Source of the DNA: Flectonema sp. DT1601
Lineage: Eukaryota
Assembly (NCBI GenBank): GCA_964019425.1
Contig: OZ025799.1
Location: 930,001-994,000 of the forward strand
DNA length: 64,000 bases
Direction: 5' to 3'
Positions 30,701-63,900 of the stretch are shown in pieces (positions within the stretch are counted from its first letter, which is position 1; the number at the start of each line of letters is the position of its first letter). Below the pieces are notes generated by a model that made no database searches, was not told the DNA's origin, and saw nothing but the letters and a program-made list of their open reading frames with translations. Made by a program: the position numbers and the translations under genes.

Positions 30701-33700
30701 GCTGTCAGGTAACAACTTCAAAATAGCATGCGCGTTTGATCTAGTTAGCGCGTATTCCGGCTTCAATGCGAGATACTCACCAAGTTTTTCAAAGCCAAAG
30801 TCTGGGTCGGCTGATGCGAGATCCGCTGCAAGGCCCAGGTGAACCTGAATTTCACTGAACTTTTCTGATAACTTGTCAGTCTTCGGATTTAAACCCATGG
30901 CCTTCAAGAGCGTGTTCTGAAATTGGTCGGACTGCGCAAGCCCGACACCTGCTGAAGTATCCAATTTCAAGGCAGGTGAGTAATCACCAGACATCTTACG
31001 GTACTTTGAAAGCAGAGAGACGTACTTATCGAGAGTTGACGTGAAGTTCACGCGACCGTCGATTCCATGAAGAAGATCATCGCTCATCGTTGACGCAACT
31101 TTGTTAATCAGATTCTGGTCTCCGGAGCTTGTGATGCTCGATACAATGGAATCAAGAGAGTCAGTAATTTTACTAATGAAACCGTTTTCCAGAAAATAGG
31201 TCAGATCCACATCGAGGTCAAAAATGTGGAATTTGCCATCCAATAAGTCAGAATCACGAAGTTCAATGATTGGAGTAAAAACAGCTCCACTTGGAGCAAC
31301 AGTGTCCTTAAACTGAACAGGAAGCTCGATGTTCAAGCTTGCGTACGGCTTTGGTGACACCTGATGGAACAAGAGGTCAGACATCGCCATATTTTCGAGA
31401 TCAGCAAATGAAAAAGTTGCTGGCGAAGCAAACTGAGTAGTATTTGGCTTCACACCTAAAGCCAGTGAAAAGATACCATCCTTCACAGCTACCTTACCAA
31501 AATCAAATTCCAGAGGGTCGATCGTGACCTTAATTCCTGCTTCGTACATGTTAATTCTCAAGAACGCTCTGTCCAATAGGTCAGCAGTACTCATTTTGCG
31601 GGTTGCAGCAATATCAGAAATGTTGATACCAATGGCAACATCCAAAAGCGCATTCGCTTCAAAATGAACCTTGTCTGACAAGTCTGGAACTGGAATGGCC
31701 ATGCTTGCGGTACCAATAAAGTCAAATAGAGCGTCAAGACCACTAATGTCCTTTAATACTCCCTGGATTTGTTCAGCAAAAAACAGGAGTAGGTTGGACT
31801 TGTGAGTGTTGCAGCTCAGTTGTAATTTTACAATCAACTCATCATCAAGGACATCAAAAGTACCTCCGTAAACGTCAGAAGGCTGAAGATCAAACTCAGA
31901 TGACGGCATTGGAATATTGTTTTGGATAACTTCCGCAAGCCCATCCAAGGTAGGCACTCCCTGCAAGTGACCACTAAACAGATCGAAATATCTTTCTACC
32001 GAACTGGTCATCTGCACCAATCCCTTAAGACCCGGAACAAGATTCTTGGCATCAATTGGACTTGGAAGATCTGTTTGTCCTAAACCGTAGTCGGCTAAGT
32101 TAATATCAATATTAGAAAGGTGCTTGAATAACTTCATAAAGACTGGTTTCAGATGAGAAATGTCATCAGGGTCAGTCGTAGTTTGGGAAGGCGGGTTTGG
32201 TCCCGAAGGGGTTGTTCCGGTTCCTGCAGTAGCCACACCTCTCGAAGTAGTGCTGTCATTAATCCACTCAAAGAGTGCAAGCCCATCAGTCTTTACGACG
32301 TACAGCTTGTCACCAACAACATGAAACGACAGGACATCTGTTGGCTCTAAAATCGTTACGGAGAGTTCACCGTCATCTACATTACCGCTCTCTTCAATAC
32401 CGACAAGTTGTAATTGTCCGTTGCATGCCATAAGAGCTCCATGAGAAACAGGAAAAGTATGACAATGTGGCTTCGATTTCACAGGACCAGCAGGTGCAGA
32501 ACCCGGTGCAGGGGTATCAACTGCTGAGATAACCTTATCTCCATCATGTCCAGTAAAGTCAATTGCTACATCAACAACCAAGGCAGTTGGATTAGACACA
32601 TTTACAACATGAAGCTGACCTATCTCATCAATAATGTATGCAATCTTCTTTGTGCCAGTCACCTTAACGGCAACGTCCACACCCCTAGCATAGATTTCAG
32701 CAGGAGGTGAAACAACCAACGGGTTAGTCTTTACTGAAATGTCAAGACTCGATAACTGTCCATCTCTCAGGACGTAAGCAATACCATCGGTTCCTACGAA
32801 TGTGTCAACTGGTGTGCCGACAGACTTTCCAAACTTCAAAACATGACGATTTGGTTTCGATGGGGTTTCGATATCATAAATCTGTAATCCCGTAGCCTCA
32901 TCAGAGATGTAAAGCGTATTGTCGTAGATCTGCAGGGTCAACGCATCATTCATATTTTCTTCATTTCTGGCACCAGTAAGGATGCTATTCACACGCGCCG
33001 GTGCTGCTGGGTTTGAAACATCAATGATGTGAACACTTCCAGCACTGCTGTCGGTAACGACCACAGTCCTTCCGTCTTCGCTGACTGCAATTTCTTCAGC
33101 TCTGATCGCAAGATAACCCACGTTGGCAAAGGTTTCAATGTTTAAAATATACAACCCATCTGTTCCCTTCGCAGCGTAGACTAAGTTACCGGACGTTGCA
33201 ACGTTCTTTGCTCCAGCGAACTCCTTGGACTGCGATTTCTTCGAATAGTAAGGACCACTACCAGGTGCTCTCGTATGAGGACCTGGAGCTGGAGTAGGTG
33301 TTCCCGCTGGAAGAGGAGTTTTCATAGCCGGTGACGTTGTTTCATCAGCAGATGAGTCATCATCATCACTTCTCAAGAAAACAAACACTACCAGCAAGGT
33401 GCAGATCAATAAAATGATAACGGCACATGCGGTGTAGCTTTTGCACTTGGATTTCTTTTCCTTAGTTGGTGGTTCTTCATTGTTCTCCACTGCAATCAAA
33501 CCCTCATCCATTTCATCCATAAATCCGGAGTTTGCTAAAGGCTGAGTTAGATACCCAGAGTCAGCGGCACTTGACTTTGGACTAGCTGGACTCGATTTTG
33601 GACTCCCAGCAGGGCTGCTTGATCTTCTTCTAGCACCCCTTGATTTAAAAGATGCCTTGTGAGAGTGATCCCCAAGGCCAAAATCATCTTCCTTCGACTC

Positions 33701-33766
33701 CTTTGGAGCCATGTCGTAACCTTCATCGAAGACCTCCGTGTCTTCAAAGTAACCCCCTCGTGGCAT
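24785..33766 (-). CDS. Giant type II membrane protein with LVIVD-repeat beta-propeller and long beta-rich ectodomain (~2990 aa)
   Basis: Uninterrupted 9-kb ORF with first ATG at 33766 (MPRGG). One TM segment (AVIILLICTLLVVFVFL), a Pro/Thr stalk, and repeats GLYILNI, SVHIIDVSNP, GLQIYDI, LSSLDIS, LHVVNVSNP. Confidence 0.85.
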   Translation of the reverse strand: MPRGGYFEDTEVFDEGYDMAPKESKEDDFGLGDHSHKASFKSRGARRRSSSPAGSPKSSPASPKSSAADSGYLTQPLANSGFMDEMDEGLIAVENNEEPPTKEKKSKCKSYTACAVIILLICTLLVVFVFLRSDDDDSSADETTSPAMKTPLPAGTPTPAPGPHTRAPGSGPYYSKKSQSKEFAGAKNVATSGNLVYAAKGTDGLYILNIETFANVGYLAIRAEEIAVSEDGRTVVVTDSSAGSVHIIDVSNPAAPARVNSILTGARNEENMNDALTLQIYDNTLYISDEATGLQIYDIETPSKPNRHVLKFGKSVGTPVDTFVGTDGIAYVLRDGQLSSLDISVKTNPLVVSPPAEIYARGVDVAVKVTGTKKIAYIIDEIGQLHVVNVSNPTALVVDVAIDFTGHDGDKVISAVDTPAPGSAPAGPVKSKPHCHTFPVSHGALMACNGQLQLVGIEESGNVDDGELSVTILEPTDVLSFHVVGDKLYVVKTDGLALFEWINDSTTSRGVATAGTGTTPSGPNPPSQTTTDPDDISHLKPVFMKLFKHLSNIDINLADYGLGQTDLPSPIDAKNLVPGLKGLVQMTSSVERYFDLFSGHLQGVPTLDGLAEVIQNNIPMPSSEFDLQPSDVYGGTFDVLDDELIVKLQLSCNTHKSNLLLFFAEQIQGVLKDISGLDALFDFIGTASMAIPVPDLSDKVHFEANALLDVAIGINISDIAATRKMSTADLLDRAFLRINMYEAGIKVTIDPLEFDFGKVAVKDGIFSLALGVKPNTTQFASPATFSFADLENMAMSDLLFHQVSPKPYASLNIELPVQFKDTVAPSGAVFTPIIELRDSDLLDGKFHIFDLDVDLTYFLENGFISKITDSLDSIVSSITSSGDQNLINKVASTMSDDLLHGIDGRVNFTSTLDKYVSLLSKYRKMSGDYSPALKLDTSAGVGLAQSDQFQNTLLKAMGLNPKTDKLSEKFSEIQVHLGLAADLASADPDFGFEKLGEYLALKPEYALTRSNAHAILKLLPDSIKSKFAFSNPVGFPIDSLGNSFDPTNSAYLPDISSVLGANGTFSIMGLAGKLAGITQTFGKNDEFQMALFDLLKGRFPSVLSRFETNATTLFPTDLLTGDKFDWSNYLQEVSTVLGMGTTGIELADDLKTIFGKTPTVQGLMSFVKNIFADTMSDYFGNNLCAHLPFEFEGRIVSKNGARYLMIELVLDFTIPNLVSGSLVNPSLDFALEKLGLKELESTIEGAFSLLPDGTRIAADLFLNVEAGVNLDPILNVGTGGAIGLPEIFLNISKVEVLSEVSTKDLSASLDFGPGLSFGVENASFAISFDLVADIDADHPIVVISEKDGLKFSLSSLWDAIKLTSDVKVNVPVRLPILPSPVVVSLTDDNLFDDVSPKLRVTSEDFPVAVSLSQSSEVGALATDVVIDFELETTTGLVSVPFVLDSKTAFTADAIEDTLNMFNESLPDSCPLNIISTVMNLLKPDQKLLTIGGVSTVANRTIKIDALNVDPCVMASKDSTEPFLELAVHATDVLDVNFLAIEGLRLEAAGYFSSTTKDRAIELLALGSTFWNGSIEANTTVFGIACSAKAEMDTTWGLANLVADCTLHQKFFTLSAEIGYTADKCSASNFGVVNLEIPSVAMIADGEIKQRASCGLDNEPEYDIAVSASDTTFHGVTIISPEFTLSQTAVNTSGTVSRVWSGMASGGISIGAQATMTAKLTFDENEVKTFDASGTFDLGPISASINASIAGGVITGSGLFDVDLKNGIIPKMSAQFEHVSTYDAMNAHLPLWSVNGSISQLDIHGIALDTATVDFVGMYTNSSNSAGDVSWTGTVAAEGHFLDNSRAVFRAEIENDEFSSLWANITVMGSNIRFSGEAEITSDHQNNKCAAVEAEGELYITGLAKNSTINFEATSLYNGCAVAGEVLYSMEATVVSTVDIFPGFSVSDLAVDVETRVPATPQAGNDWKASIQGTANLFGASSHASLEWENGRVTMAHLDTAFTTANGLISASMELNYVDDCNVASQGTANATIRIKDLADLDITGQVSYNKCSGVVQIAGSAALGWNGPTGTSYHSLTVALTSSDNGGDPNAKLGTRDWTGSIAGMSTSGVSALFQFDTKNGTIDGMVKYEDDNVDVKVAVGTSNCTGKGTLVLKKLPHQIPAVEIDISFSRPGCQAPMWRVEGSIKKLTIPFHGKNLVIDEVSVVVENDINDKKTVEIRGDFMDGDFTMSLSFGVQPLTDVIFIGQKKSQTDISIASFTSKWYSKSTTSSPFASSSGNPAMQSSLSSAVLDTITLKINFSEKYLSVRAVGSLYGLEFESAIGIQFDGGKWKFGAYFLTSDFNGRTGMPGIVDKVLDGLKPSELSINIANSKMVIEGIQVRKGLSIRIVLGETNDQMQKMMTSAPSDFRSQIDGAKTPSKTGITGFVLQADILSTKEITVFAMLAGNIHLGGGTYFRTLALAFKISTVPEIGFLAEIDFTVGKGVNQQVLTAGGFIGLDAGGTISIGLSLDSPKPWKNPFGIGGVEVLFPLGIEMGIHVSGSPTSFSFFGGMQIGGAHGRIVIGIDIVDFSKTAFKGEIGGLSMRTLIVDVGRCQKCIVGVEDIVDGTALELLKGSFNPDPINAVVIHAGAASETIDAGMSVNIKNLKILGVLHVESANFKLDVTGIEAGLQLAPVNWGPLTITAPGDPTQGPGFQLALTLTKQQFDVRGEIKLLGLTTMLDLSVGTMGSRGTFHLSLLGLQVDVLLLVQGKPGDKDFKNVIEGSMSVGFVNDILDKAGDFFAGLADKAAVFLEDKQKKFEQAASKVRDAQRKLDAAKDKASKAIRSAQNRVRDYRIRKQRAACAKKCRRGWFGIRICWGVFRCWIMKQFSKLLVVAEKALGVAEHISHAAIDVAKGFLYVAEKAMQVAAKGLEIAKVGAQKFSGLIKKYGSLSKVFSIQSLGFKSVLTSKTTKLDLHADLIILGKAKRLDFSAELSFAEVFKGIMGTVKKAIL

Positions 33767-33867
33767 TTTTTTGTTAGTAGTGATCTGGGTGTGAGTGAAA
33801 AATAAAAAACAAAGAGACACGTTTCACAGAAGATCAACTAATTGTACACACAATATCTAATCACTAA

Positions 33868-34255
33868 TGCAAAAGTATACCTGGGGAAACACCTGACGAA
33901 AAAGATGCGATTATTAAAGGTATACAGGAATCGATCACAAACAAGTTTCCAAACACAGAACTACATCTACCCGTGCTAACAGTAGACCCTTCAAAGGGTC
34001 ACCTTGGCATTGACAAGGCTTCGTTTGCTGGACCCAGGACTAACCTAAACAAGCAGATAAAGAACCTCGATGCTAACATAGCTACAGGGTAAGGAGATAC
34101 CCGATGAGGACATTATAACCAAACCCAAGTCACGCTTCGATAAGCTCGCCATGCACCACGACCTCGCATATGCTGGAGCTGAGAGAGACTATAAAGATGA
34201 TAAGAACGTGTGTACGAAGACAGAAGCACAAGGCCGACTGGAAACTAATAAAAGG
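33868..34255 (+). pseudogene. Frameshifted Polinton/adintovirus- or parvovirus-type phospholipase A2 domain remnant
   Basis: Three frames read ELHLP...SFAGPRTNL, then KPKSRFDKLAMHHDLAY, then RRQKHKADWKL, matching the GPG / D..A..HD..Y / AD signature. Confidence 0.7.
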
Positions 34256-34284
34256 GAACACAAAACACACGAGCTCTCTGGCTC

Positions 34285-35030
34285 TTATTTTGTCACTCAT
34301 TCTCCATTGGTCACGCTCCCCTCGGAGCTGCCTCAGAGTAGAATACTAGTATCGCCTTCTGTACAAACGATACGAGAAAAAGACAGTGCGGCGACCTCAT
34401 TCACAGAGGAATCACCTATTGTGAGGCAATGGTCTGAAGGTAGGCTCGATCTGGATAACTACTGTCAAGCAGTAAGTGACTCTCTTCAAACAAATGAGAA
34501 AGCGGCGCTGCTCTCAGAAAAACTGTTGGAAGCACAATATCGTCACACGGAGTTGAGCTACCAACAGAAGACTGTTCACAAAGAACAATTGGATCAGTCG
34601 ATATTGTTGACGGATGGCCAGTGAGCTCTCTGAACAACTCTATTTGGCCAAAGACCAAATCAGAGCTCTCAAGTTTCAATTACAAACTTGGGCAATTGGT
34701 TTAAATCCTCCAGGAAAGGAAGCGCAAGAAGAGAACGAGACACCTCCACGTCCAAAGGAGCGTTTATCTCAAAAAAAGCGGATTCTGCCCTCTACCAACT
34801 TTCATAATCGCAGGAGAATCTTTCCAGATGACGATTGCTAAGTTTTAGATATTATTAGTATTTATTTATTTGTATTAATTTATCGGTATACTTATGTCTG
34901 TCGAGTCATGACGCTAATCAGATTAATTGTAAATGGCTTAAACCCCAATCCAAGTTCCCAAGGCTTGGCATAGATATGAGTGACGCCTTATTGGCCTCCT
35001 CATCCGTGAGGGGGCCAGCAATGGTTTTTT
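34285..35030 (+). mobile_element. 5'-truncated 3' end of a relative of the NeSL/HERO-like retrotransposon
   Basis: Encodes ESPIVRQWSEGRLDL-NYCQAVSDSLQTNEKAA, homologous to the end of ORF 60994-63741. The 3' UTR closely matches 63850-64000. Confidence 0.85.
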
Positions 35031-35219
35031 CTTTCCTTTTTTTCTTTTACCTTGATATGAATATTTTTTTGTTCAAAATGTGATTACTAAAAAAAAAAAA
35101 AAAAATACTGTAATTATAAATATGAGGACATGTCAAAAGTCTGGTACCGTTTTGGTCAACGGTAAACTGTGGGCATGTACAACTCAATCGAGACCCAACC
35201 CCGTCTGAAACATGCCCCC

Positions 35220-35540
35220 TCCGTCAACATTATCGACTGATCCAACTGTTCTTTATGAACAGTCTTCTGTTGATAGCTCAACTCGGAGTTGCTCTTCCAA
35301 CAGTTTTTCCGAGAGCAGCGCCACTTTCTCATTTGTCTGAAGAGAGTCACTTACCGCTTGGCAATAGTTGTCCAGTAAATCGAGTCTACCTTCCGACCAT
35401 TGCCTCACAATAGGTGATTCTTCCATCGATGAGGTCGCCGCACTGTCTTTTTCTTGTTCCGTTTGAGCAGAAGAGGATACCAGTAGTCTACTTTGAGACA
35501 GTTCAGAAGGGAGCGTGATCAATGGAGAATGAGGGATAAA
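35220..35540 (-). mobile_element. Second, inverted fragment of the same retrotransposon C-terminal region
   Basis: Minus-strand translation HSPLITLPSEL...ESPIVRQWSEGRLDLLDNYCQAVSDSLQTNEK. Confidence 0.8.
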
Positions 35541-35666
35541 AAAAAAGGAAAGACAGGGTTTGGGAGTCCAGGAGCAATGAGTTGCTGCGATGAGAGGGAG
35601 TCGGTAATTTATTACCGTGGACGTTGATTCAAAGGGTGTTGGGGGAAATTGTTGGGAAAAAGGGAC

Positions 35667-36186
35667 AATGCTTCGGACCTCCGTCGACCTTCGTTCTTCC
35701 GGCGGCAAAGGGAAACAAGAAAGAACGGGCAATGAGACAAACCTGTTAGTTGGTGTTGTGTTGTTGTTAAAAACAAAAACATAAACGCCAGGAAGTTCGA
35801 CAATGAAGACATCGACATCGATCGCTGCTCTGCAGATGTCCGGCGGGTGTTTGTCTACACTGTGTTTATTGTTTGTTTTTTTCCCAAGGTTCAACCTTGG
35901 GAAGAGAAGTAAAAAATTCCGTCAATGTTGGCCTTCCTGTTCGAAGGTGCGCACCAATGACGATAAATAGAGTGGGGGGAGAAAACCTTTGATCCAACTG
36001 GATCCCTTCACGAGCTGACATTGCCATGTGAAGTTAAATATTCTGGCGATGCCAGCTCAGGCGACTTAGCCTGCTTTTTTCTTTAAATAAAAAAAATGAA
36101 AAGATACCAACAGGTGGGGTGATGGGTTGCGCCACTGCAATCCAGTCACAAAAAGAAACAAAGGTAATCTCAAGGGTTCTCGACCC
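35667..36186. mobile_element. Element A, internal fragment
   Basis: Near-identical to 54338-54860 and 60478-60986. Confidence 0.85.
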
Positions 36187-36612
36187 AAAGAATAAGGTCA
36201 GAAAAGTAGTGTGTCAAAAGTGTCCAAAAATAAGTGTGGAAAAGTGGTTAAAAAATACTGTAGTAAGCTGACGGCTACCCCACTGTACAAGAATCAGTTT
36301 ATGATATTTTTGCTCGATTTTTTTTTTATTTAATCGGGCTGACCCCCATCTACGCGAATAAGCACTTCGATTTATTTCCAGGTGAGAGACTCATCCATGG
36401 TTGACCGTAAAGAGGAAACTGCGAAATCTCGGTTGTGAGTTTGAAGGATGCTCTTCAGATTTAGGAATTCCGACTATTAGTCGGGCAGGATCACATGTTT
36501 CCGCGCATTTAAATGCAGCTTTGGTCGGCACATTTACTCCTCACAGCAATTTTGTGGTCCACTTTTCCGTTTTTGCCTATTTCTGATAAGGAAATAAAAT
36601 TTTGACTGATAT

Positions 36613-37391
36613 ATCAGTCATTCCTTTTTTTTGCGAACAAATTTTGGACATTGAAAAAGATTTTCAAAAAAAAATTGTAAAAATTTCGATCGAAGCGGCA
36701 TTTTAATGCGCTGCATCGTTGGGTTCATTTCCGTCCGAAATCGGGAGGTTGGCATCACATACTTGTCACCCGAATTGAGAAAAGAGATTTTGTGGTTTAC
36801 TAAATCAGCTCAGCCGTGGACAAGTACCAAAACTAAAAATTAATCGAAGGGTCTAATTTTACACTGCTGGTCCAGCGGGATCCAGAGAAAAAATAATCGA
36901 GCAAAAATATATTAAAGAGTACTAAGCATGTGCCGGTGAGGCAGATTGTTACTACCTGTCTTTTTGGACCTACTTTGATACTTAATGATCATTATCACCA
37001 CCACAGATGCAACATTTTCCTTACATAATTGCTACCAGGGTTGATTTGTTAGTAAAAAGGTGCATATCTCTTGAGTGCGGGAGAAAGAAAAAAAATAGTA
37101 AAAAAAAAAAATTAGGGGTGTTTTTTACTCAGATTTTCTCGATCTTTCCATTCCAGGTCTGGGATTAATATTTATCATTGAGTAGTACCAAGGAAATCTT
37201 GCAAAGAGACGTTTATCTCCTTTTAGCAGCACTTACCATGTTTAAAAGTATATCCCTATGCCTAATTTTACAGATCGCACCCTCCCCGATTCCAAAAAAT
37301 AAAAAATCTAGCAAAAGTAACATATCGTGTAACCTTGCTCAGGCGGTGAGAAAATGGTGTTTTTTGTTCGCAAAAAAAAGGAATGACTGAT
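36613..37391. mobile_element. Tc1/mariner-like MITE
   Basis: About 28-bp inverted termini ATCAGTCATTCCTTTTTTTTGCGAACAAA (36613-36641, reverse complement at 37363-37391), embedded in TA runs; no ORF. Confidence 0.65.
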
Positions 37392-50884: not shown

Positions 50885-51814
50885 CAGTTGCAAATTTGTT
50901 TTTTCAGGTTGGACTTTGTACGGAACAGGCGGGCTTTTATTAGGGGCTCCCCCCCTTGGGGGGGGAGCTTTGATACGATACGAAAAGATTTATCTGGGAA
51001 GAATACTGCAGGTCTTTGGGGGGGGGGGGGTGAGGGCTTGCACTCTTCCCAGCTTGGTAGGCTAAAAAACAAAAAACCCGCCGCAAGCCAAATTTTTGGG
51101 TCAAGTTCGAGTCCTGGTGGACAACTTTTTTTTGTAGGGAGTTGGCGATTTCGCAAACTATTTTTGTTGAATTAGAGGTTTTCCCTTTATTTTTTAAAGA
51201 AAAAAAAGGAAAATAGAAATTAGTCAACAAAGTCGAACGATAAAAAAAACAATGATAACATTGTTTATTCTTTTTTTTTTTTTTTTTTTTTTATATTCTT
51301 TTTTATTAATTTTGAAAAAAAAACAATCAGTTTAGCGTCTTGACCAGGACGGAAAATAGAAAGTGATCGACATAGTCGATCGATAAAAAAACAATGATAA
51401 CATTGTTTATTCTTTTTTTTTATTTTAAATTCTTTTTATTTATTTTTTAAAGAAAAAAAAAACGGAAAATAGAAATTAGTCAACAAAGTCGAACAATAAA
51501 AAAAAACAATGATAACATTGTTTATTCTTTTTTTTTTTTTTTTTTTTTTTATATTCTTTTTTATTAATTTTGAAAAAATAATCAGTTTAGCGTCTTGACC
51601 AGGACGGAAAATAGAAAGTAATCGACATAGTCGATCGATAAAAAAACAATGATAACATTGTTTATTCTTTTTTTTTATTTTAAATTCTTTTTATTTATTA
51701 TTTAAAGAAAAGAAACGGAGAATAGAAATTAGTCGACAAAGTCGAACGATAAAAAAAAACAATGATAACATTGTTTATTCTTTTTTTTTTTTTTTTATAT
51801 TCTTTTCATACTTG

Positions 51815-52030
51815 TACCCCTTTAAAGGGGGCAAAATAAAGGGGAAATTAAAGGGCTTTTAATGCCCTTTAATTTCCGTAATTCCAAAATAAAGGGGAAA
51901 TAAAGGGCTTTTAATCCAAATAAAGGGCTTTTTTCCCTTTTTTTCCAAAATAAAGGGGAAATAAAGGGGAAATAAGCGGAATAAAGGGGGGTGGGAAAGC
52001 CCCTTTATTTCCGCTTTATTTATTAAATCC
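51815..52030. repeat. AATAAAGGG(G) minisatellite with direct and inverted copies
   Basis: About 8 forward TAAAGGG units plus inverted CCCTTTA units. Confidence 0.7.
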
Positions 52031-52420
52031 CAAGGCACCCACCACGCTGCGTCATCCTAAGCCGGAAAGGAAAATTACTCGAAAGTCGGGGCAGTTCGAA
52101 CGTCAGCATTCACATCAGCAAGCAACCAGTCCTGAGTACTTAAAGAACCCAACCATTACGTGTATCAGCCACAGTCACACTTAGTATAGCGTTAGTACAG
52201 AGGACACGGATCTGCTATGCAGGGAAGTGACTTGAACTCGTTCAACTAATTAATGTGTGTAGATATAAGCGCCGCGAATTGACGGGTCTGAAGTTATGCT
52301 TTCCGAAGAGAGCAACCACCCACGCGAGTGTTATTTTGACGCTATAACCTGTGACTTTCAACACGTAACAACCAGGGATAATTCTCAGTAAGGCCGCCGT
52401 CACCGTGAAGCTGCTACGTA

Positions 52421-54013
52421 GTGGGATCACTCAGGGTCTAGTAGAGACCACCAATGTTGTGCGTTGATAGGCAAGGTGACCAACCTTGACATTCTTTCTT
52501 TTCTCTCCTGTTGTGACAAACACAAAATACACACACAGCTTACAGTGTGTTCTTTGTGTATGTTTTCTTCAGGTGTGAGTAGTTTTTTTGTTCTTGCTCT
52601 TCAGGGAGGGCCTTAGCCAAAAGCTAACAGTCCAAATCTCACCTGGAAATTCAACTCAGTCCTTGTCAGTTTTGGCATCAAACTTGTAATGGTTTAATCA
52701 TTACAGGTTATTTACTGAAATATTTGTTCTAAAAGTTGCTAAGTATTTCTCACTTAGAAATTTTTTATTTTTTTATTTTCAGCTTAATTAGCTACAAATT
52801 GTTTCTACTAAGTGTTTCTCACTTAGATTTTTTTTTTGCTTTTCAGCTCCTTAAAAGCTGCTAAGTGTTTCTGCTAAGTGTTTCTCACTTAGAATTTTAT
52901 TTTTATGTTCGTTTTCTATCCCTTCTCCTATCCCTTTTGTTCAAAATGAGCGGGAGGAAATTCTCTCATTCACGCTAAGATGCACTCTGAACTTTGATTT
53001 TTTGATCTGAGTGTGAGGGAATGACCTGTTAGTGCATTGGGCATAGGCTGGGCTGCAGTTTAGATGTCTTAGGTGTTAATAGGGGGTTCCTCTTAGCATT
53101 TTTCTTTGTTCCCACCTTATGATTTTCTTGAAGAAAAAAAATAGAAGTCATAATGGTGCTTCCCTCTGGAAGGGTTGTAAGCCATGGTGTCCAACTAAAT
53201 TAAAGGACAAGTCTGGGATAATCCCTGCCAGAGGGGCGAGTATTCTACCATGGTTGAAATACTCTGGCAACTGATCTTCAATTTTATGTTGTTTGTTAGC
53301 TGCTGGTGTATCCTGATCATGTGTTGATACTTGCATTTTTTTATTTGTAATCTTCTATTACAATTCTCTTTCTGTTCTGGTCTGTTACTTCATTTGTCTT
53401 GTTTAACTTCAGTTATATCCATTTTACTTTTTATTGTTTCCCATCTACTTTTTATTTTCTATTAGTTCTGGTCAGAAACTCCTGGGCAGCAAGAAGGAAA
53501 GCAGTTAAGTACTTCTGGGTGTTTGGCATCACCCCCCATAGTGAGCAAGTACAACAGGTAGCATTGGTAGTCTGTTGATCCTGAGTGATCCCAGCTACAG
53601 TTTTGTTTTTCTTTCTTTTTTTTAGAAGAAGATCAGGACATCCAAGCACTGCTGGATAGTTGCTGAATGCAGGGCCTGCCTGTGGCATTATAATAACAGG
53701 CTAAGTCATTTGTAGTTCATAGTTTACCTTTGATTTTATAACTTCACACAGGGTACTATGAACGATGAGAGATCCAGTGGGATCACTCAGGGTCTAGTAG
53801 AGACCACCAATGTTGTGCGTTGATAGGCAAGGTGACCAACCTTGACATTCTTTCTTTTCTCTCCTGTTGTGACAAACACAAAATACACACACAGCTTACA
53901 GTGTGTTCTTTGTGTATGTTTTCTTCAGGTGTGAGTAGTTTTTTTGTTCTTGCTCTTCAGGGAGGGCCTTAGCCAAAAGCTAACAGTCCAAATCTCACCT
54001 GGAAATTCAACTC
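52421..54013. mobile_element. Element B: 238-bp partial copy (52421-52658) followed by a full ~1355-bp unit (52659-54013)
   Basis: Both parts end in GGAAATTCAACTC. The insertion splits CTGCTACG|CATAACCCAAC, a junction seen near-intact at 57042-57062. Confidence 0.88.
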
Positions 54014-54182
54014 ATAACCCAACAAACTAGCAATTCCTCCAACCTTTTTCGTCAGTCGGGATTGTTACACGCCGGAAAAGGAAACTACTCGAAAGTCGGG
54101 GCAGTTCGAACGTCAGCATTCACATTAGCAAGCAACCAGTCTTGAGAACCCAACCATTACGTGCATCAGCCACAGTTAACCT

Positions 54183-55175
54183 GAATAAGAAATTTGGGAG
54201 AGGAATAGGGGCAGTGAACTTTTGATTCAGGCCCTTCCCAACGAACAGGACGAAGACTTCTAAAACCTGAGATGAACCAATTGAGTTGAAACAAACAAAT
54301 AACAGAGACGCAACACATACCGGAACATCATCGCAAGCAATGCTTCGGACCTCCGTCGACCTTCGTTCTTCCGGCGGCAAAGGGAAACAAGAAAGAACGG
54401 GCAATGAGACAAACCTGTTAGTTGGTGTTGTGCTGTTGTTAAAAACAAAAACATAAACGCCAGGAAGTTCGACAACGAAGACATCGACATCGATCGCTGC
54501 TCTGCAGATGTCCGGCGGGTGTTTGTCTACACTGTGTTTATTGTTTGTTTTTTTCCCAAGGTTCAACCTTGGGAAGAGAAGTAAAAAATTCCGTCAGTGT
54601 TGGCCTTCCTGTTCGAAGGTGCGCACCAATGACGATAAATAGAGTGGGGGGGGAGAAAACCTTTGATCCAACTGGATCCCTTCACGAGCTGACATTGCCA
54701 TGTGAAGTTAAATATTCTGGCGATGCCAGCTCAGGCGACTTAGCCTGCTTTTTTCTTTAAATAAAAAAAATAAAAAGATACCAACAGGTGGGGTGATGGG
54801 TTGCGCCACTGCAATCCAGTCACAAAAAGAAACAAAGGTAATCTCCAGGGTTCTCGACCCTTGGCTCTCCCTGCGCAAGCATCGCATGGAGGGTGACGCT
54901 AAGCACCCGGGGGGTACGAAACAAACTTTCCCCCTGCTGTCCTGTTTGAAATAAAAAAAAAAAAAAAAAAAAACAAAGGGATAGAAGTAAACAGAATACA
55001 TTACACCTCAACAGGTGACGCTAAACACCCAGGGGATACAAACCAAACTTTCTCCCTGTTGCCCAAACTTTCCCTGGAATACAATACCTAACAATCAGTG
55101 CGTTCACTGGCCTTAGGGCTGTTCGGACTTATGCTTTGGACTGTTCCCTTGCAGAAAAAAAAAAGTAAAATAAAC
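54183..55175. mobile_element. Element A, longest copy (~990 bp)
   Basis: Starts GAATAAGAAATTTGGGAG and splits GTTAACCTG|CAACTTTC, which is intact at 56974-56990. Confidence 0.88.
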
Positions 55176-55268
55176 CAACTTTCAACATGTAACAACCAGG
55201 GATAATTCTCAATAAGGCCGCCGTCACCGTGAAGCTGCTACGAATAACAGTTCGAACGTCAGCATTCG

Positions 55269-55788
55269 AATTTCGATAAGTGGGAAGTAACGGACTGGGA
55301 GCTTTTGGCTCCTGCCCTATTCCCGATGTAAACTTTCTTTTTATTTTTATTTTTTTTTTTAACAGGCCCAAAGGGCGACAATGATGGTTGCTGACCAAGG
55401 AATAATATTCAAATGAATTTTCGTTTCAAAGAAACGAACAGAATTGAGAGAGAGGCAGAGAAAAAAAAAAAAAAAAAAAGAAAGAATAGAAAAAGAAAAA
55501 TATGAAGAGGAAATAATCAAACATGAAAAAAAAAAAAAAAAAAATATAAATAAAAAACGTTGTATGAAAAAGGAAAAAAAGAAAAAAAAAGACCAGAAAA
55601 GGAAAGAGAAAATGAAAAGGTATAATATTATTGTGGGGATATGAGGATAGCAGGGAGATGCTCTTTTTTTTTTTTTTTTTTTATTATTTAAAAAAAGGAA
55701 ACAATCAGTTTAGCGTCTCGATCAGGACGGAAAATAGAAATTAATCGACATAGTCGATCGATAGAAAAAAAATGATAACATTGTTTAT

Positions 55789-55827
<39 letters not shown>

Positions 55828-56082
55828 CTTTTAATTATTTTAAAGAAAAAACAATCAGTTTAGCGTCTTGACCAGGACGGAAAATAGAAAGTAATCGACA
55901 TAGTCGATCGATAAAAAAAAAACAATGATAACATTGTTTATTCCTTTTTTTTTTTTTTTTTTTTTTGTTCTTTTCATTTATTTTTAAAGAAAAAACAATC
56001 AGTTTAGCGTCCTGACCAGGACGGAAAATTGAAAGTGATCGACATAGTCGATCGATAAAAAAACAATGATAACATTGATTAA

Positions 56083-56117
<35 letters not shown>

Positions 56118-56229
56118 TTTTAATTATTTTTTAAAGAAAAAACAATCAGTTTAGCGTCTTGACCAGGACGGAAAATAGAAAGTGATCGACATAGTCGATC
56201 GATAAAAAACAATGATAACATTGTTTATT

Positions 56230-56261
<32 letters not shown>

Positions 56262-56920
56262 CCTTTTTAATATTTTAAAGAAAAAACAATCAGTTTAGCG
56301 TCTTGACCAGGACGGAAAATAGAAAGTGATCGACATAGTCGATCGATAAAAAAACAATGATAACATTGTTTATTCTTTTTTTTTTTTTTTTTTTAAATTC
56401 TTTTTATTTATTTTTAAAGAAAAAAAAACGGAAAATAAAAATTAGTCGACAAAGTCGAACGATAAAAAAAAAACAATGATAACATTGTTTATTCTTTTTG
56501 TTTTTGTTTTTTTTTTTTATATTCTTTTTTATTAATTTTGAAAAAAAAAACAATCAGTTTAGCGTCTTGACCAGGACGGAAAATAGAAAGTAATCGACAT
56601 AGTCGATCGATGAAAAAAAAACAATGATAACATTGTTTATTCTTTTTTTTTTTTTTTAAATTCTTTTTATTTATTTTTTAAAAAGAAAAAAAAACGGAAA
56701 ATAGAAATTAGTCAACAAAGTCGAACAGTAAAAAAAAAAACAATGATAACATTGTTTATTCTTTTTTTTTTATTTTTTTTTTATATTCTTTTTTATTAAT
56801 TTTGAAAAAAAAAAACAATCAGTTTAGCGTCTTGACCAGGACGGAAAATAGAAAGTGATCGACATAGTCGATCGATAAAAAAAAACAATGATAACATTGT
56901 TTATTCTTTTTTTTTTATTC
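55269..56920. mobile_element. Element C copy (head plus tandem units)
   Basis: Starts GAATTTCGATAAGTGGG and splits CAGCATTC|ACATTAGC, which is intact at 54114-54129. Confidence 0.88.
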
Positions 56921-57271
56921 ACATTAGCAAGCAACCAGTCTTGAGAACCCAACCATTACGTGCATCAGCCACAGTTAACCTGCAACTTTCAACATGTAAC
57001 AACTAGGGATAATTCTCAATAAGGCCGCCGTCACCGTGAAGCTGCTACGAACATGACCCAACAAACTAGCAATTCCACTCACTTCGAACACACTCAGCCA
57101 GAGAGCTTGCCAACAGAACAGAACGCAAGGTTACTTTCGGGTCCAATCTTCGCCGTGAGCCTGGTGTCTTGTGCTGGACTGGGTTTCCAGAGGGCCTCAC
57201 CATGCACACAAACTCCTGGATGGGACGATCGAGGGAATCAACCAAGCCGAGAACTGAACCGGAAGGATAGG

Positions 57272-57982
57272 CAGGGAGGGCCTTAGCCAAAAGCTAACAG
57301 TCCAAATCTCACCTGGTAAATTCAACTCAGTCCTTGTCAGTCTTGGCATCAAACCTGTAATGGTTTAATCATTACAGGTTATTTACTGAAATGTTTGTTC
57401 TAAAAGTTGCTAAGTATTTCTCACTTAGAAATTTTTTATTTTTTTATTTTCAGCTTAATTAGCTACAAATTGTTTCTACTAAGTGTTTCTCACTTAGATT
57501 TTTTTTTTGCTTTTCAGCTCCTTAAAAGCTGCTAAGTGTTTCTGCTAAGTGTTTCTCACTTAGAATCTAATTGTTATGTTCGTTTTCTATCCCCTCTTCT
57601 ATCCCTTTTGTTCAAAAAAAGCGATGAGAAATTTCTCTCATTCATGCTAAGATGCACTCTGAACTTTGATTTTTTGATCTGAGTGTGAGGGAATGACCTG
57701 TTAGTGCATTGGGCATAAGCTGGGCTGCAGTTTAGATGTCTTAGGTGTTAATAAGGGGTTCCTCTTAGCATTTTTCTTTGTTCCCACCTTATGATTTTCT
57801 TGAAGAAAAAAAATAGAAGTCATAATGGTGCTTCCCTCTGGAAGGGTTGTAAGCCATGGTGTCCAACTAAATTAAAGGACAAGTCTGGGATAATCCCTGC
57901 CAGAGGGGCGAGTATTCTACCATGGTTGAAATACTCTGGCAACTGATCTTCAATTTTATGTTGTTTGTTAGCTGCTGGTGTA
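57272..57982. mobile_element. Element B: 57-bp partial copy plus the start of a full unit, cut off by the retrotransposon at 57983
   Basis: Matches 52602-53310, including the AATTCAACTC|AGTCC tandem junction. Confidence 0.85.
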
Positions 57983-59413
57983 ATTAATTCTATAGAGAAC
58001 GCTGTCAAATGGAAAGAGGCAAGAACGAGAATGAAAAGGATTTTCCGAATGTATCGGAATTTAGAAAAGAAAAATTTATTCAAAAAATTACAAGATAAAT
58101 TTCGTCAAAATCCGTTTTCTGCCATAAAAGAAGAACTCCAAAAAGAAGATCCTCAACCCCCCTCCCTTGATATTCCAGAGGAAAAAATAATTGAACATTT
58201 TAAAAACAATTATTGTGACAATGAAAAAAAAAAAACTGATTTCACCCATCCCTCTTTTTTACCTAAGTCTGACTACAAGACAATGGATGATATCCAGTTC
58301 CCGAGCTTCGAACAGTTTGGTATTCTCTTATCAAAGAAAAAAAACAAATGTGCCCCTGGTCCCAATTGCATACCTTATGTTGTATGGAAAAAGGTCCCAA
58401 CTTTTATGGAAGCACTTTACAAGGTATTAAAGAGAATTTTCGAACTCAAGGCCTATCCGGATAGTTGGGGCTTAGCATTTGTAACAATGCTCCCAAAGCC
58501 CAACTCCGATGGGAAAGACATCTCGAAAACGAGACCGATAGCTGTGGGCAACTGCGACGGGAAAATTTTTAATACGGTTATTCAGGAAGCCGTCGCAAAC
58601 CACACTCTTTCTAAATTTAATTTTCAAAAAGGCTTTAGGAAAGGTGTCTCTGGGTGTATCGAACATGCCACAATCACCTCAGAGATTTTTAAAGAAGTGA
58701 AAGCTCTCCGGAAAAACCTAACAATTGTCTGGGTGGATTTGGCAGATGCTTTCGGCTCAGTCAAACATCAATTAATTTTCTTTGCTTTAAAATATTTCGG
58801 AATTCACGAAAGAATAATCGGTTTCTATAAAAGGTATTATTCCTCCATGCGCGTCCAAATCAGAGTTGGAGAAGGCCTGACGCCCACTATCCCTTTTGAA
58901 GTTGGTGTCTTTCAAGGCTGCGTTTCCTCCCCAACCCTTTTTAATTTGGTATTCCAACTACTGCTCTTTTCCTTAGCAGTTCATCAACAGGAAGCCTACG
59001 AGTTTAACAATAAATCCCTCCAACTATTAGTTGCAGCTTTTGCTGATGATTTACAACTTACCACGTCATCAAAGGCGGGGGCAAAATTGCTAATCAAGTC
59101 GCTCGAACAGTTTCTTTCCTGGTCTCGTGGTATGAAAGCGAAACCCCAGAAATGCATTGCCCACAGCTTTGTACAAGGGAAACCAGCTAACCCGGACCTG
59201 AAGATTAACAATGTTCCGATTACGAATCTCCAGGAAGCTGGAGAGTTCAAATACCTCGGGCGTTGGTTTGAGCCGAACGCCAAAGAACAGAAATTGCGAG
59301 AGCGCCTGACCACTTTTACCAGGAATTTTTTAAAAAAAGTCGACGCCATGCCACTATATGGGTCTCAGAAGGCTTGGTCTGTCCAACACTTGTTATTGTC
59401 AAGGTTAACATGG

Positions 59414-60078
59414 GAATGACCATCTTCATCCATTTTGTATTGTTAAACTAATTAAGACAAAATTAAGAATTAAACTACTTAGAATAAGTGATTAAACATA
59501 TGAAACTGACGTCGGGGTGATGTTACATCTTCAAGAGGTCGTTTAGACAAAACTTTGAAACGCACCGAGGCAAGAGCGGTGCAACAAGCCAAATAAACAA
59601 GCAAACAATTCGCGAACCTCAAGAAGAAACACCCAGGGTGGGTTGGGTGGGAAAAAGTTTAAAGTTTTAAGTAAATAAGCAAAATTTGCTAAGGAAAGGA
59701 ATATAATGTTAAATGTTTAGCGAATAGATAAACAAACGGCTTCCAGAGCACAGAGCAAATCATCGCAACAGAGCCGTTCAGTCCAAGCATTGCACAGAAC
59801 CCGAAGTATTAAGTTCAGAGTGCATTTTAGTTAAGGGAGGGATATTTTTCTTTCCGTTCCGATAGGAGCGGGAAGAGAGAATGTAATAAAAGATTTTCGA
59901 CGTACCAGAGCAGGCATAGCCGAGTGGTTATGGTCGTCGACTATAAATCGCTTGGGTAGCCGTGGTCACGGGTTCAATTCTCGGTCACGGCAGATTTTTC
60001 GCGTTTTTCCTTCAGGAAACTGAAGGACTAAAAAGACACAGAAATGGACTCAGTGATCATTCCCTGAGTAAACTGAGA
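59414..60078 (+). mobile_element. Element F inserted in the retrotransposon ORF (665 bp)
   Basis: Ends GAATGACC...GTAAACTGAGA coincide with those of the 40343-41030 copy. Removal gives in-frame SRLTW-SLMIHDL. Confidence 0.88.
59910..59992 (+). pseudogene. tRNA-derived sequence within element F
   Basis: TAGCCGAGTGG A-box, GGTTCAATTC B-box and TTTTT downstream; imperfect cloverleaf. Confidence 0.7.
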
Positions 60079-60323
60079 AGTTTAATGATCCATGACTTAT
60101 CTCTCCCTTTTGCCAAAAAAATGGACAAAATTATTAAACCTTTTTTGAAGAAATGGTGGGGATTTGTCCGCTCTGCGAACACAGTCATCCTTTTTACCGG
60201 TTCAAAGAACACTGTTGGTCTCAGACACAAAAGAGTTGAGACGCTATATAAACAAGCGCAATCAATTAAACTAGACATCCTCAGATCCTCACAGGACTCT
60301 GACATGCACGGTGTCTACAAGGT

Positions 60324-60986
60324 GAATAGAAATTTGGGAGAGGAATAGGGGCAGTGAACTTTTGATTCAGGCCCTTCCCAACGAACAGGACGAAGACTTC
60401 TAAAACCTGAGATGAACCAATTGAGTTGAAACAAACAAATAACAGAGACGCAACACATACCGGAACATCATCGCAAGCAATGCTTCGGACCTCCGTCGAC
60501 CTTCGTTCTTCCGGCGGCAAAGGGAAACAAGAAAGAACGGGCAATGGGACAAACCTGTTAGTTGGTGTTGTGCTGTTGTTAAAAACAAAAACATAAACGC
60601 CAGGAAGTTCGACAACGAAGACATCGACATCGATCGCTGCTCTGCAGATGTCCGGCGGGTGTTTGTCTACACTGTGTTTATTGTTTGTTTTTTTCCCAAG
60701 GTTCAACCCTGGGAAGAGAAGTAAAAAATTCCGTCAGTGTTGGCCTTCCTGTTCGAAGGTGCGCACCAATGACGATAAATAGAGTGGGGGGGGAGAAAAC
60801 CTTTGATCCAACTGGATCCCTTCACGAGCTGACATTGCCATGTGAAGTTAAATATTCTGGCGATGCCAGCTCAGGCGACTTAGCCTGCTTTTTTCTTTAA
60901 ATAAAAAAAATAAAAAGATACCAACAGGTGGGGTGATGGGTTGCGCCACTGCAATCCAGTCACAAAAAGAAACAAAGGTAATCTCC
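60324..60986. mobile_element. Element A inserted in the retrotransposon ORF (663 bp)
   Basis: Near-identical to 54183-54846. Removal gives in-frame HGVYK-V-IIMEKS. Confidence 0.88.
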
Positions 60987-63900
60987 TATTATTATGGAGA
61001 AATCGTCCAACTGGTCGAAAAAGTTTTCAGCTTCTGCTGAGTGGGAGCGCCTTATTAAGTTTTTTTCTTACCGTTCTCTTGCGAAGCAATCAGCTGGTCT
61101 TGGTCACCGATTGCGCGATCTACGTACTACTCGCCCCGATCTCCTTAAGCGTTTTGAAGTGGAAGCCACAGATGAACTACTGAACTCTTTGAATAAATTA
61201 CAAGTCCAAGGTCAGTGGAAGGAGTGGTCTAAATGTATGATAAACGATTTCACCTGGAATAAGGTACTTAGGGAGGGAAATCCTGCCTATATCTCATTTC
61301 AACTGAAAGCGGTTACAAACACCCTCCCCTCACAAGATAATTTAAAGAGGTGGAACATCACCAATGTGGACCAAAATTGTGTTTTGTGTGGCAAAGTGAA
61401 TCCTACCCTCAGGCATGTCTTAACAGGCTGTCCTGTCTCTTTAACACAAGGGAGGTTCACGTGGCGTCACGACAGCGTTCTAAAACGCATTGTTATCTTC
61501 TTGGAAGAGTTGATAATAAAAGCCAACAAAAGAAAAGAAAACCTCCCGCCTCCCTCTCAAACTTTTTTAAAAACAGGGGAAAATAAACCCCTAGAAAGAA
61601 TTTCTAAAGAGACAGGCGAACTTTCACTAGCGAATGATTGGGTCATCCTCGACGATGTCGGTGATAACCGCCTAATTGTTCCTCTTGAAGTGTGCCATGT
61701 CTCGTCCTCTCTAAGACCAGACATTTTTATTTATTCTTTTTTTGCGAAAAGAGCACTGATTCTGGAGCTGACGTGTCCAAATGAAGATCGTTTCGAAACC
61801 TCTCATGTCTTAAAGGAAAAGAAATACCTAAAGCTAAGAGACTCGATCATCGCTAATGGCTTCGACTGTAACATTTTTACTATTGAAGTTGGCGTACGAG
61901 GAAACATCTGCATGGACCAGCTGAACATCTGGACACGTCACATCGGTTCACCTTTAGCACCAACAAAAGCTTTATTTTGTGAATGCACCAGAATCGCCAG
62001 ACAGTGCTCATATGTTCTGTTCCAGACGAGGAACCTCCCCACGTGGCATTCAAGACCACTAATGCGCAGCATTAAAGAAGAACCTGCCACTGCAAGTTTT
62101 ATAAAAGATGGTAAAGAAATCTTCCCTGTGGAAGAAGTCAAAATCCACAAAGTAACAAAACTGAAAACGATCGAAAAGCTCACCATTGAAAGATCGTGGC
62201 TTGAGAAATGTTTTATCTGGCAAACTTGTTACGCATCGGCTCTTTCTATTCTACTTATTGCCAATGGTTCTTCCTCCCCGGCCCCTTCTGTTTTGTTAGA
62301 TGAGGATGAGCTCACTGGACTCTCCTTGTCATTCTCTTCTATTTCTTCCATCTCTTTCCAGACTCCCCCACCTGAACTCATGTCAACGGGATCGCAAACA
62401 CTTCCTGCTGATTTCGCTATAGTGATAAGAACTCAATCTGACATGGGTTCTCAAACCCCCATGTACAAAAAAAAAGAAGGAAAATTAAGGCTGAAACTTT
62501 CCTTGAAATGCCAGATTTTAGAAAACGAATTAGAGCAAATGAAAGAACGAATTTTTTATGTTCTATTTTTATTTTACTTTAATGCGATGTCAGCCTCCCT
62601 CGAGAAAGACAAGCAGTTACTAAATGGATTACCTGTTGAGATCAAAGCTACCAACCAGGATCCATCCTCACTTCCTCCTGCGCCCCCTGTTTTAATTATT
62701 GAAAAAGATAGAAAAGAATATGAACTTCTGGAAGGAGTAATTCAACGGTTAACAGCAGAACGCGATGAATCGAAGACTTCTCTTTCTGCACTAGTTCGAC
62801 AATATGACTTAGTGGAAGATTACAGGAAACGTGAGCTCGCAAATCTGACTCAGAGAGCAGACCTATCGGAAATGGCGCTCTTTAATTACCATCAAAGGTT
62901 TGTTCTTCTGTCGAACGAATTGGAGACCAAATGTAATGAGGAAAGAGAAAGTAAAATAAGACTTTTCTATACTCAACAGGAGGTCGAGAATTTGCGTGCC
63001 GCGCGTCCCCGTATGACCCACTTTAGTCAACAAGTTTCCCCCCGAACCCCCGTTCTGTATGAATCTGTTGCTATGATGAAGATAGCAAAGAACTACCTCT
63101 CGCTCTTTACAACTACGAGTAGTCTTTTTACTCCTCTTATTAAACCCCTTATCCCTACCCTTAATTATATCACCCCTCTTTGTCCTCTAGCCTCAATTCC
63201 TCCGACAATGCCGCAGAGTGAAGCTCTCGACCGCACGCCGACCAAGATTTTACGACAAGAGAGTCACGTTATCTCCGTTAGAGAGAATACACCTATTGCG
63301 AGACAATGGTCCGAGGGTAGGATTGACTTACTCGAGAACTACTGTCGAGCAGTAGATGACTCTCTCGAAACAAACGAGAAAGCGGCAGAGCTCTCAGAAC
63401 AACTTTTGGATGCCCAACTTCGCCTCTCGGAGCTGAATCACCAACGGTGTACAACTCACGCAGAGCAGCTTGAGCAATCCATGATGTTAACGGGACTGGC
63501 GAGCGATTTAAATGTTCAACTCGCCTTGGCACGGTCTCAAATTGCGGCCCTGAAGTTCCAATTAGCTTCATGGGCAGAAGGTTTGAGTCCGCCAGACACA
63601 GAAGAACATGAGGAAATTGAAACTCCGCCGAGAAAGTCTGAGCGTTCAACTCTGAAAAAACGGACCCCTCCATCAAGATATCGTTATAATCGAAGGAGAT
63701 GTTCTGCTGATGACGTTCACGGTGACTCCACCCCCTTGTAATTCTCTTTTTCCTTACTTTCACATCACTTTGTTTATTTAGTTTATTAGCTTATTTATTA
63801 TTTATTATTTATTGTTCGTTTTGTTTGTAATATTTTGTCGATATGTTTATGTCCGTCAGATCATAACGTTAATCAGATTAATTGTTAATTGTAAATGGTC

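Follow-up and report, generated by a model that had tools for sequence, protein, structure and literature searches.

A CAAAA-loop hairpin marks the ends of three dissimilar mobile families and may serve as a handle for a borrowed reverse transcriptase

Stringent LINE proteins select their RNA through a 3' hairpin whose loop is fixed and whose stem can be exchanged as long as it pairs (PMC4176376, PMC1636434). The eel element UnaL2 and its SINEs have a common 3' pentaloop hairpin with a bulged hinge, and the likeness of this hairpin to the iron-responsive element has been noted (PMC1636434). In zebrafish ZfL2, the stems can be swapped and the loops cannot (PMC4176376). R2 jumps templates and mobilizes short non-Pol III elements (PMC3414825). 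Insertions of Penelope-like elements (PLEs) are marked by partial tandems, inversions, the absence of poly(A), and short or no duplications; the Naiad and Chlamys PLEs are without hammerheads (PMC8557442). For a purified PLE, the start of reverse transcription is internal and lies at a stem-loop rich in A and C (PMC11167929). The trypanosomatid elements RIME, NARTc, and SIDER (ingi clade) have a 77-nt 5' promoter/ribozyme signature, poly(A), and target duplications (PMC12278014). How retrotransposon proteins choose the template and the first base has been worked out in only a few animal elements. Repeats of diplonemids have for the most part not been curated, and their rigorous identification is still warranted according to PMC10161547.

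The window is the whole 64-kb stretch of DNA analyzed here. It contains a hydrolase gene (7850-8941) whose product shares 70% identity with a protein of Flectonema neradi and 40% with one of Diplonema ambulator. From these identities, the host is likely a marine protist of the diplonemids. The window also contains an intronless 3011-codon ORF (24785-33820) with just a weak LVIVD-repeat match. From 33850 on, it is a nest of mobile elements of the restriction-like endonuclease (RLE) type, CRE-like elements, and short families, among them A, B, C, and F. With A, B, and C taken out, the host DNA around them (52030-52419, 54014-54182, 55176-55267, and 56917-57271) is a ~250-nt unit in about three repeats. 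One copy of this unit holds a small insert with inverted ends. A short MITE-like element at 36609-37395 has 33-bp inverted ends and TA flanks. A two-frame remnant at 33990-34190 has no Pfam match; it resembles a phospholipase A2 motif of the parvovirus/Polinton type.

The pattern GGGC-N6-CAAAA-N5-CWGYCC was scanned over the whole 64-kb window with up to two mismatches allowed. It matched 12 times, always exactly: five times in B, five in C, and two in A. The expectation in shuffles was 0.33 +/- 0.57, and 12 matches were reached in 0 of 100 shuffles. Elsewhere in the window there was no further match, even at two mismatches. A covariance model built from seven hairpin copies with nine core pairs recovered the same 12 copies from the window at 65 to 75 bits; the next best hit scored 17 bits (E = 0.05). 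A preliminary description of this DNA had reported the hairpin in A, B, and C, and its sequences and coordinates were correct as written. It named 5 of the 12 copies. The other seven are B 39178(-), 39913(-), 53964(+), and 57278(+) and C 45059(-), 46290(+), and 46499(+). Outside the motif, A, B, and C are alignable only in A/T runs, which agrees with their having been called otherwise dissimilar.

In the seven-copy alignment, all 63 cells of the nine core pairs are paired. Three pairs vary on both sides, two vary on one side, four are constant, and none is broken. Slid registers of the same alignment are only 25 to 48% paired. The covariation score was reached by 0 of 500 shuffles, a control that is inflated by related rows. 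Random substitution at as many sites as are seen to differ keeps all five apical pairs in 0.9 to 1.6% of trials per family pair, for a motif picked post hoc. The covariation comes from only three independent sequences, A, B, and C. The CAAAA loop is invariant, as had been claimed; the GGGC/GYCC helix, for which the same had been claimed, has a G-U pair in B and C versus a G-C pair in A. The apical stem is paired in all families, but it is not wholly different in each of them, since B and C have the inner three apical pairs in common.

The strand that ends in ATTC had been favored as the functional one, and it is indeed the structured one. In each family it forms 9 of 9 core pairs versus 8 of 9 on the opposite strand. 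Both one-sided changes give G-U on the ATTC strand and a mismatch on the other. On the ATTC strand, A, B, and C fold as RNA into one common shape. Its outer stem of 5 to 8 pairs is followed by a lopsided loop and the GGGC/GYCC helix; beyond these come a 1x2 loop, a stem of 5 pairs, and, at the tip, CAAAA. The outer stem, the third, is predicted in all three families with a sequence that differs by family; that of B has an alternative pairing in longer context. No single RNA fold is common to A, B, and C on the opposite strand. Single hairpins are not unusually stable (z of -0.5, -1.5, and -1.9), and DNA folds of the hairpin are weak and inconsistent (-5.6 to -9.3 kcal/mol). From these three independent sequences, the hairpin is a real, selected RNA structure that marks the ends of three mobile families.

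Rfam gave nothing at gathering level over the whole window and five weak subthreshold matches in 52400-55420. A crude descriptor of HDV-like folds gave only spurious poly-T/poly-A matches. A motif scan of sequence collections returned 58 loci in viral contigs and 46 in metagenome contigs. In 24 of these 104 loci, at least 4 of the 5 apical positions are paired, and in 2 of them all 5 are. None of the 104 is BLAST-similar to the window and none has the outer stem and end, so they are taken as chance. The strict consensus occurred 0 times in prokaryote genomes. Literature searches listed no description of this motif, and a diplonemid intron paper (PMC12621601) yielded nothing on it.

The longest unit of B contains 1356 nt (52658-54013, +; core 53964-53989). 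A 5'-truncated 238-nt copy (52420-52657, +) lies directly upstream of this whole unit, in a pseudo-LTR-like arrangement. Its core hairpin (52608-52633, +), defined by fold, scan, and alignment, contains a 4-bp lower helix, a 1x2 internal loop, a 5-bp upper stem, and the CAAAA loop. With the outer stem predicted by RNA folding, it spans 52600-52647 (+). A 24-nt spacer (52634-52657, +), defined by end comparison, leads from the helix to the fixed end of B, which is ACTC. A 57-nt 3' piece (core 57278-57303) and the start of the next unit are found at 57272-57982 (+), cut by the RLE retrotransposon. Two 5'-truncated copies lie head to tail in the CRE-like element (39154-41407, -; cores 39178-39203 and 39913-39938), one of them with an F insertion. 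Lengths of B from the fixed end are 57, 238, 704, 832, and 1356 nt. B is broken twice at the same base (53310/53311 of the unit), at the RLE 5' junction 57982/57983 and at a tandem B 5' end, 39887/39888. This coincidence would be explained by a hot spot of cleavage or by an RNA end at that base.

The longest copy of A contains 993 nt (54183-55175, -; core 54209-54234), and its empty site is seen at 56970-56995. A 5'-truncated copy of 664 nt (60324-60987, -; core 60349-60374) lies in the ORF of the RLE retrotransposon. A fragment without the hairpin end is at 35666-36186 (-). Lengths of A from the fixed end are thus 664 and 993 nt.

C is built of a 430-nt head and a ~255-nt tandem array that is kilobases long in places. 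A 433-nt copy (41614-42046, -; core 41639-41664) meets an inverted copy (42047-45037, +) head to head at 42046/7; the inverted copy is without about its last 140 nt. A copy with a long ~255-nt tandem array (45034-51810, -; core 45059-45084) is interrupted by other insertions. Two 5'-truncated copies of 92 and 210 nt lie head to tail at 46248-46549 (+; cores 46290-46315 and 46499-46524). A 1649-nt copy (55268-56916, -; core 55292-55317) is flanked by a 4-bp duplication, and its empty sites are seen at 52100-52125 and 54108-54133. Lengths of C from the fixed end are 92, 210, 433, and 1649 nt and more, and the range over A, B, and C is 57 nt to several kb. Within the C array, the element at 49949-51185 has inverted ends of 57 bp and carries a piece of large-subunit rRNA in antisense, along with two tRNA-like pieces. 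It has no Rfam match at gathering level. The rRNA fragment presumably reaches the R2 site region.

A, B, and C encode no recognizable protein. In 52420-55700, 27 of the 40 listed stop-to-stop frames were scanned against Pfam, with 0 hits at the cutoff. The 136-codon frame of A matched five proteins that run into A copies and two weak, unrelated proteins, with no RT among them. For a Pol III head, there was no tRNA call in the window and no Rfam match in A, in B, or in the head of C, although A and C may lack their true 5' ends here.

The lower helix lies 24 to 26 nt from the element end in all 12 window copies. The terminal bases are ATTC in A and C and ACTC in B. The proximity of the hairpin to a fixed end, as first described, holds for these 12 copies and, with a few exceptions, for some 20 more junctions of A and C that predicted proteins reveal. 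No poly(A) or simple-repeat tail was found at the ends of A, B, and C in the window; ATTC or ACTC abuts the flanks directly. The bases beside the fixed end vary, with no target consensus across the window copies and the protein junctions. The absence of the hairpin from F, also in the preliminary description, was confirmed with the covariance model. Both F copies nevertheless end in ATTC. Family F (59414-60078 and 40343-41030) has both ends fixed in its two copies and inserted bluntly after GG. It contains a tRNA-like stretch at 59915-59990, antisense to the ATTC strand, that was recognized by eye and not called by ARAGORN. It also has a small hairpin at the end opposite ATTC and a 20-nt stretch in common with B.

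Further junctions were read from predicted proteins, apparently of the same assembly (97 to 100% identical to the window elements), because ORFs that enter an element reveal the junction. These outside junctions are inferred from the protein letters, and the target bases are those of the host element's copy in the window. The translated C end retrieved 14 proteins. Thirteen retain C as far as codon one or two of the end, with different residues ahead of it in each; P0238 is the exception. Extra C junctions are in P0161, P0156, and P0267, the last being the same junction as in P0242. In the commonest C type (8 of the 14 plus P0161), the residue before the end can end in G in 9 of 9 (chance 0.09), and the terminal base requires G. 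Among the C flanks are the RLE element, the CRE element, an RT fragment, and proteins that match MuDR and BED-finger domains weakly. A is joined exactly at the fixed end in P0257, P0271, P0272, and P0274. The exceptions are P0273, which falls 3 nt short; P0275, where A stops about 15 nt early and adjoins a trimmed C; and, in the window, C 46339 (1 nt short). A is seemingly 5' truncated in P0273 to P0275, and C is 5' truncated in P0121. Junctions mostly at the same end beside differing flanks make A and C dispersed, recent families. No extra sequence beyond the fixed end was carried along in the outside insertions of A and C.

The empty site was read from a paralogue in the window or from an intact member of the family. 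Where it is known, insertions are blunt, have lost 1 or 2 bases, or have a duplication of up to 4 bp (C 55268). Of the 14 fixed-end junctions whose empty site is known, 3 show an overlap of 3 or 4 nt between the target and the element end (P0156, P0161, and C 45034); 0.3 to 0.5 of 14 are expected (P of 0.003 to 0.011). The other 11 have 0 to 1 nt of overlap, three of them with extra bases. This count leaves out three B tandem junctions, one C tandem junction, and P0250, whose subfamily's exact end is unseen. Variable ends have overlaps of 2 or 3 nt or 1 to 3 extra bases. In five of the 12 copies, the end abuts another copy on its 3' side (B 39889, 52657, and 57328; C 45034 and 46339). In all five, this neighbor belongs to the same family. 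Two B tandem junctions are identical (52657/8 and 57328/9), and the other tandem junctions differ.

These junctions point to reverse transcription and not to a DNA transposase. The sharp 3' end, the spread of 5' truncation, the primer-like overlap, the tandems, and the inversion fit target-primed reverse transcription. We propose, with a probability of roughly 45%, that A, B, and C are protein-free retroposons that move by this route, the hairpin being an RNA handle for a borrowed LINE-type RT that starts copying 24 to 26 nt downstream. The ATTC strand would be transcribed, probably inside long polycistronic transcripts. A protein may read the invariant loop and the lower helix, and the upper stem would need only to pair. 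The fixed spacing would set the first copied base. A bound protein that measures a constant spacer in this way would explain why there is no tail and no 3' flanking DNA. The nicked target would act as primer, sometimes through 1 to 4 nt of pairing with the terminal AUUC. An early stop of copying would give 5' truncation, and a jump to a second RNA copy would give tandems.

The window contains two candidate partners. The first, at 57989-63741 (+), is a non-LTR retrotransposon that carries motifs of an RT, a zinc knuckle, and a restriction-like endonuclease and is interrupted by F and A. Past the endonuclease, its ORF goes on for ~570 aa and enters a region that resembles a coiled coil (62020-63741). 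Its cluster contains 235 predicted proteins; another non-LTR RT cluster contains 16. Two diverged relatives lie at 34 to 35 kb (34282-34833 and 35217-35665), and a GC-rich hairpin whose loop varies is preserved in their 3' UTR. The covariance model matches only the 12 copies, so the motif is absent from the visible 3' UTR of the RLE element in the window and from that of its relative at 34865-35107. This relative seems to end in poly(A). The four visible RLE-type 5' junctions (57983, 35665, P0156, and P0159) all join A, B, or C in the same orientation. The second candidate is a CRE-like non-LTR retrotransposon fragment (37682-41613, +), broken by B and cut by C, so that its 3' UTR lies outside what the window shows. 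Clade names such as CRE-like are our reading of the motifs. A protein of this family, P0261, has an ORF of at least 2510 aa. After the RT and endonuclease, it encodes long Pro/Ala/Thr repeats and a ubiquitin C-terminal hydrolase domain (E = 2e-13); it also has two RNase H1 N-terminal domains (E = 2e-28). We weighed an inversion between 39888 and 57983 and rejected it, as intact CRE proteins run directly from 39153 to 41408.

Neither RT element shows the motif in the parts that are visible, and no motif-bearing autonomous element was found in the data examined, which counts against the LINE-type reading. No RT relatives were found in the viral contigs. The preliminary description had asked whether motif hits mark element ends, and they do. 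It had also asked whether any adjoin an RT or transposase ORF; in the data examined, no copy terminates an RT or transposase element that could be called its own. Its reading of the hairpin as a cis recognition signal for a mobilizing enzyme is partly supported. Partners of the L2 type end in a short repeat, and A, B, and C do not clearly do so. The 0 to 1 nt overlap at 11 of the 14 junctions, the exceptions to the fixed end, and F with its ATTC end and no hairpin also sit poorly with a LINE-type partner.

The strongest rival has the same role for the hairpin and a different enzyme. A Penelope-type RT would start inside the RNA at the stem-loop, and A, B, and C would be non-autonomous Penelope-like elements. 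This is possible, if on the unlikely side. A partial B copy precedes a whole unit with the identical junction twice (52657/8 and 57328/9), and the same-family tandems, the head-to-head inversion at 42046/7, the lack of poly(A), and the short or absent duplications all agree with it. A tandem master of the Penelope kind fits the same-family tandems at least as well as template jumping does. However, the inversion could be a later rearrangement, the optional 30- to 40-bp tail is absent, and the C junctions share nothing past the end. A simple core search found no hammerhead core in A, B, and C. No PLE ORF was found in the window, and none was recognized among the flanking proteins, which is a weak test. 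Among the papers listed for Penelope-like elements in Euglenozoa, none dealt with such elements, judged by title or the opening of the abstract. We consider a LINE-type RT partner somewhat likelier than a Penelope-type one.

The hairpin could instead define or protect the RNA 3' end as a processing or termination signal, with no RT binding, and a relaxed RT would copy from that end. Precise cleavage would also give a constant spacing of 24 to 26 nt and no tail. Under this reading, the ATTC end of F without a hairpin suggests that the end motif may matter separately. The hairpin has no Rfam family match, no ribozyme core was found, and the covariance model places the motif in no host gene of 1-33800. 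A processing role is improbable in our judgment.

An HUH enzyme (Helitron, Replitron, or IS91-like) could move the families as single-stranded DNA, with the hairpin as a DNA origin and the variable end as imprecise termination. One fixed end with a hairpin nearby and the general lack of duplication agree with this. Hairpins are general in HUH transposons, and Helitrons, IS91, and Replitron-1 are target-specific (PMC10288648); Helitron-like ORFs have been reported in Diplonema (PMC10161547). The fixed end of A, B, and C shows no orientation-specific target sequence among the window copies and protein junctions, and the terminal direct repeats of the Replitron type are absent. Helitron ends are TC...CTRR. 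Such ends are also absent from A, B, and C. The DNA fold is weak and inconsistent, and the differently truncated tandems, the inversion, and the primer-like overlaps fit reverse transcription better. We rate this reading just as improbable as the processing signal. The motif might also have no function and merely descend from the end of a common ancestor. This would suit three sequences with unexceptional single folds, but it is very improbable, given that the surroundings have diverged past alignment while loop, helix, pairing, and spacing were kept; the pairing would be retained by chance in ~1% of cases per family pair.

Beyond the retroposon reading, an undescribed diplonemid retroelement lineage could be involved, either the first Penelope-like clade of Euglenozoa or a new tail-less non-LTR clade. 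Its RT would grip a 50-nt bulged CAAAA hairpin, measure 24 to 26 nt, and dispense with poly(A), with a ribozyme, and with homology to the target. Any RNA that bears the handle, up to several kb of satellite, would then be inserted almost anywhere with clean 3' ends. We think this rather unlikely. The three natural variants separate what is kept (the loop, the lower helix, the pairing, and the spacer of 24 to 26 nt) from what can change, and so provide a ready mutagenesis plan. The motif can be used as a probe for the autonomous element. A compact, tail-less loading signal is of interest for RT-based writing of RNA into genomes.

The iron-responsive element has a bulge five pairs below a C-starting loop, with the loop consensus CAGUGN. 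The hairpin of A, B, and C is like it in the bulge position and the C-starting loop; unlike it, the loop is not CAGUGN, there is no Rfam match, and the hairpin sits in mobile repeats. The split direct repeats and two defined ends of the tyrosine recombinase elements VIPER, TATE, and SIRE, as given in PMC6681497, were not seen in A, B, and C, which have one variable end.

RIME, NARTc, and SIDER are, like A, B, and C, short euglenozoan retroposons with one terminal signature across dissimilar families (PMC12278014, excerpt). The signature of these known euglenozoan retroposons is common to their 5' ends, whereas A, B, and C carry theirs at what we take to be the 3' end. A, B, and C also differ in having no poly(A) and a duplication of 0 to 4 bp. 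Non-autonomous PLEs (Chlamydomonas MRC1) and non-LTR retrozymes have partial tandems, inversion, 5' truncation, no poly(A), and a stem-loop start, as do A, B, and C (PMC8557442; 10.64898/2026.07.22.740005; PMC11167929; excerpts). Unlike them, A, B, and C show no tail extension, no hammerhead, and no PLE partner.

The R2 SIDEs, together with the hybrid SIDEs of R2/R1, are likewise non-autonomous and non-Pol III, with a 3' structure that has compensatory changes, variable 5' junctions, and template jumps (PMC3414825, excerpt). A, B, and C differ from the R2 SIDEs in that they are not site-specific, have no HDV-like ribozyme that we found and no poly(A), and show no sequence likeness to an autonomous element that we saw. 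The pairs UnaL2 and UnaSINE1/2, and ZfL2-1 and ZfL2-2, have, like A, B, and C, a 3'-terminal pentaloop, upper stem, bulged hinge, and lower stem across dissimilar elements, in the parts of the sources that describe them. The loop is GGAUA in UnaL2 and the UnaSINEs versus CAAAA here. In contrast to stringent LINEs and SINEs as described there, A, B, and C have no clear terminal repeat, no Pol III head was seen, and they are 1 kb to several kb long. With no tail and no Pol III head, they do not qualify as SINEs in the strict sense. They do have a fixed 3' end with variable 5' truncation and a 3' stem-loop with a fixed loop and a paired stem, in three sequences, as the non-autonomous partners of a stringent LINE do, and the hairpin would work like the 3' tail common to a LINE/SINE pair.
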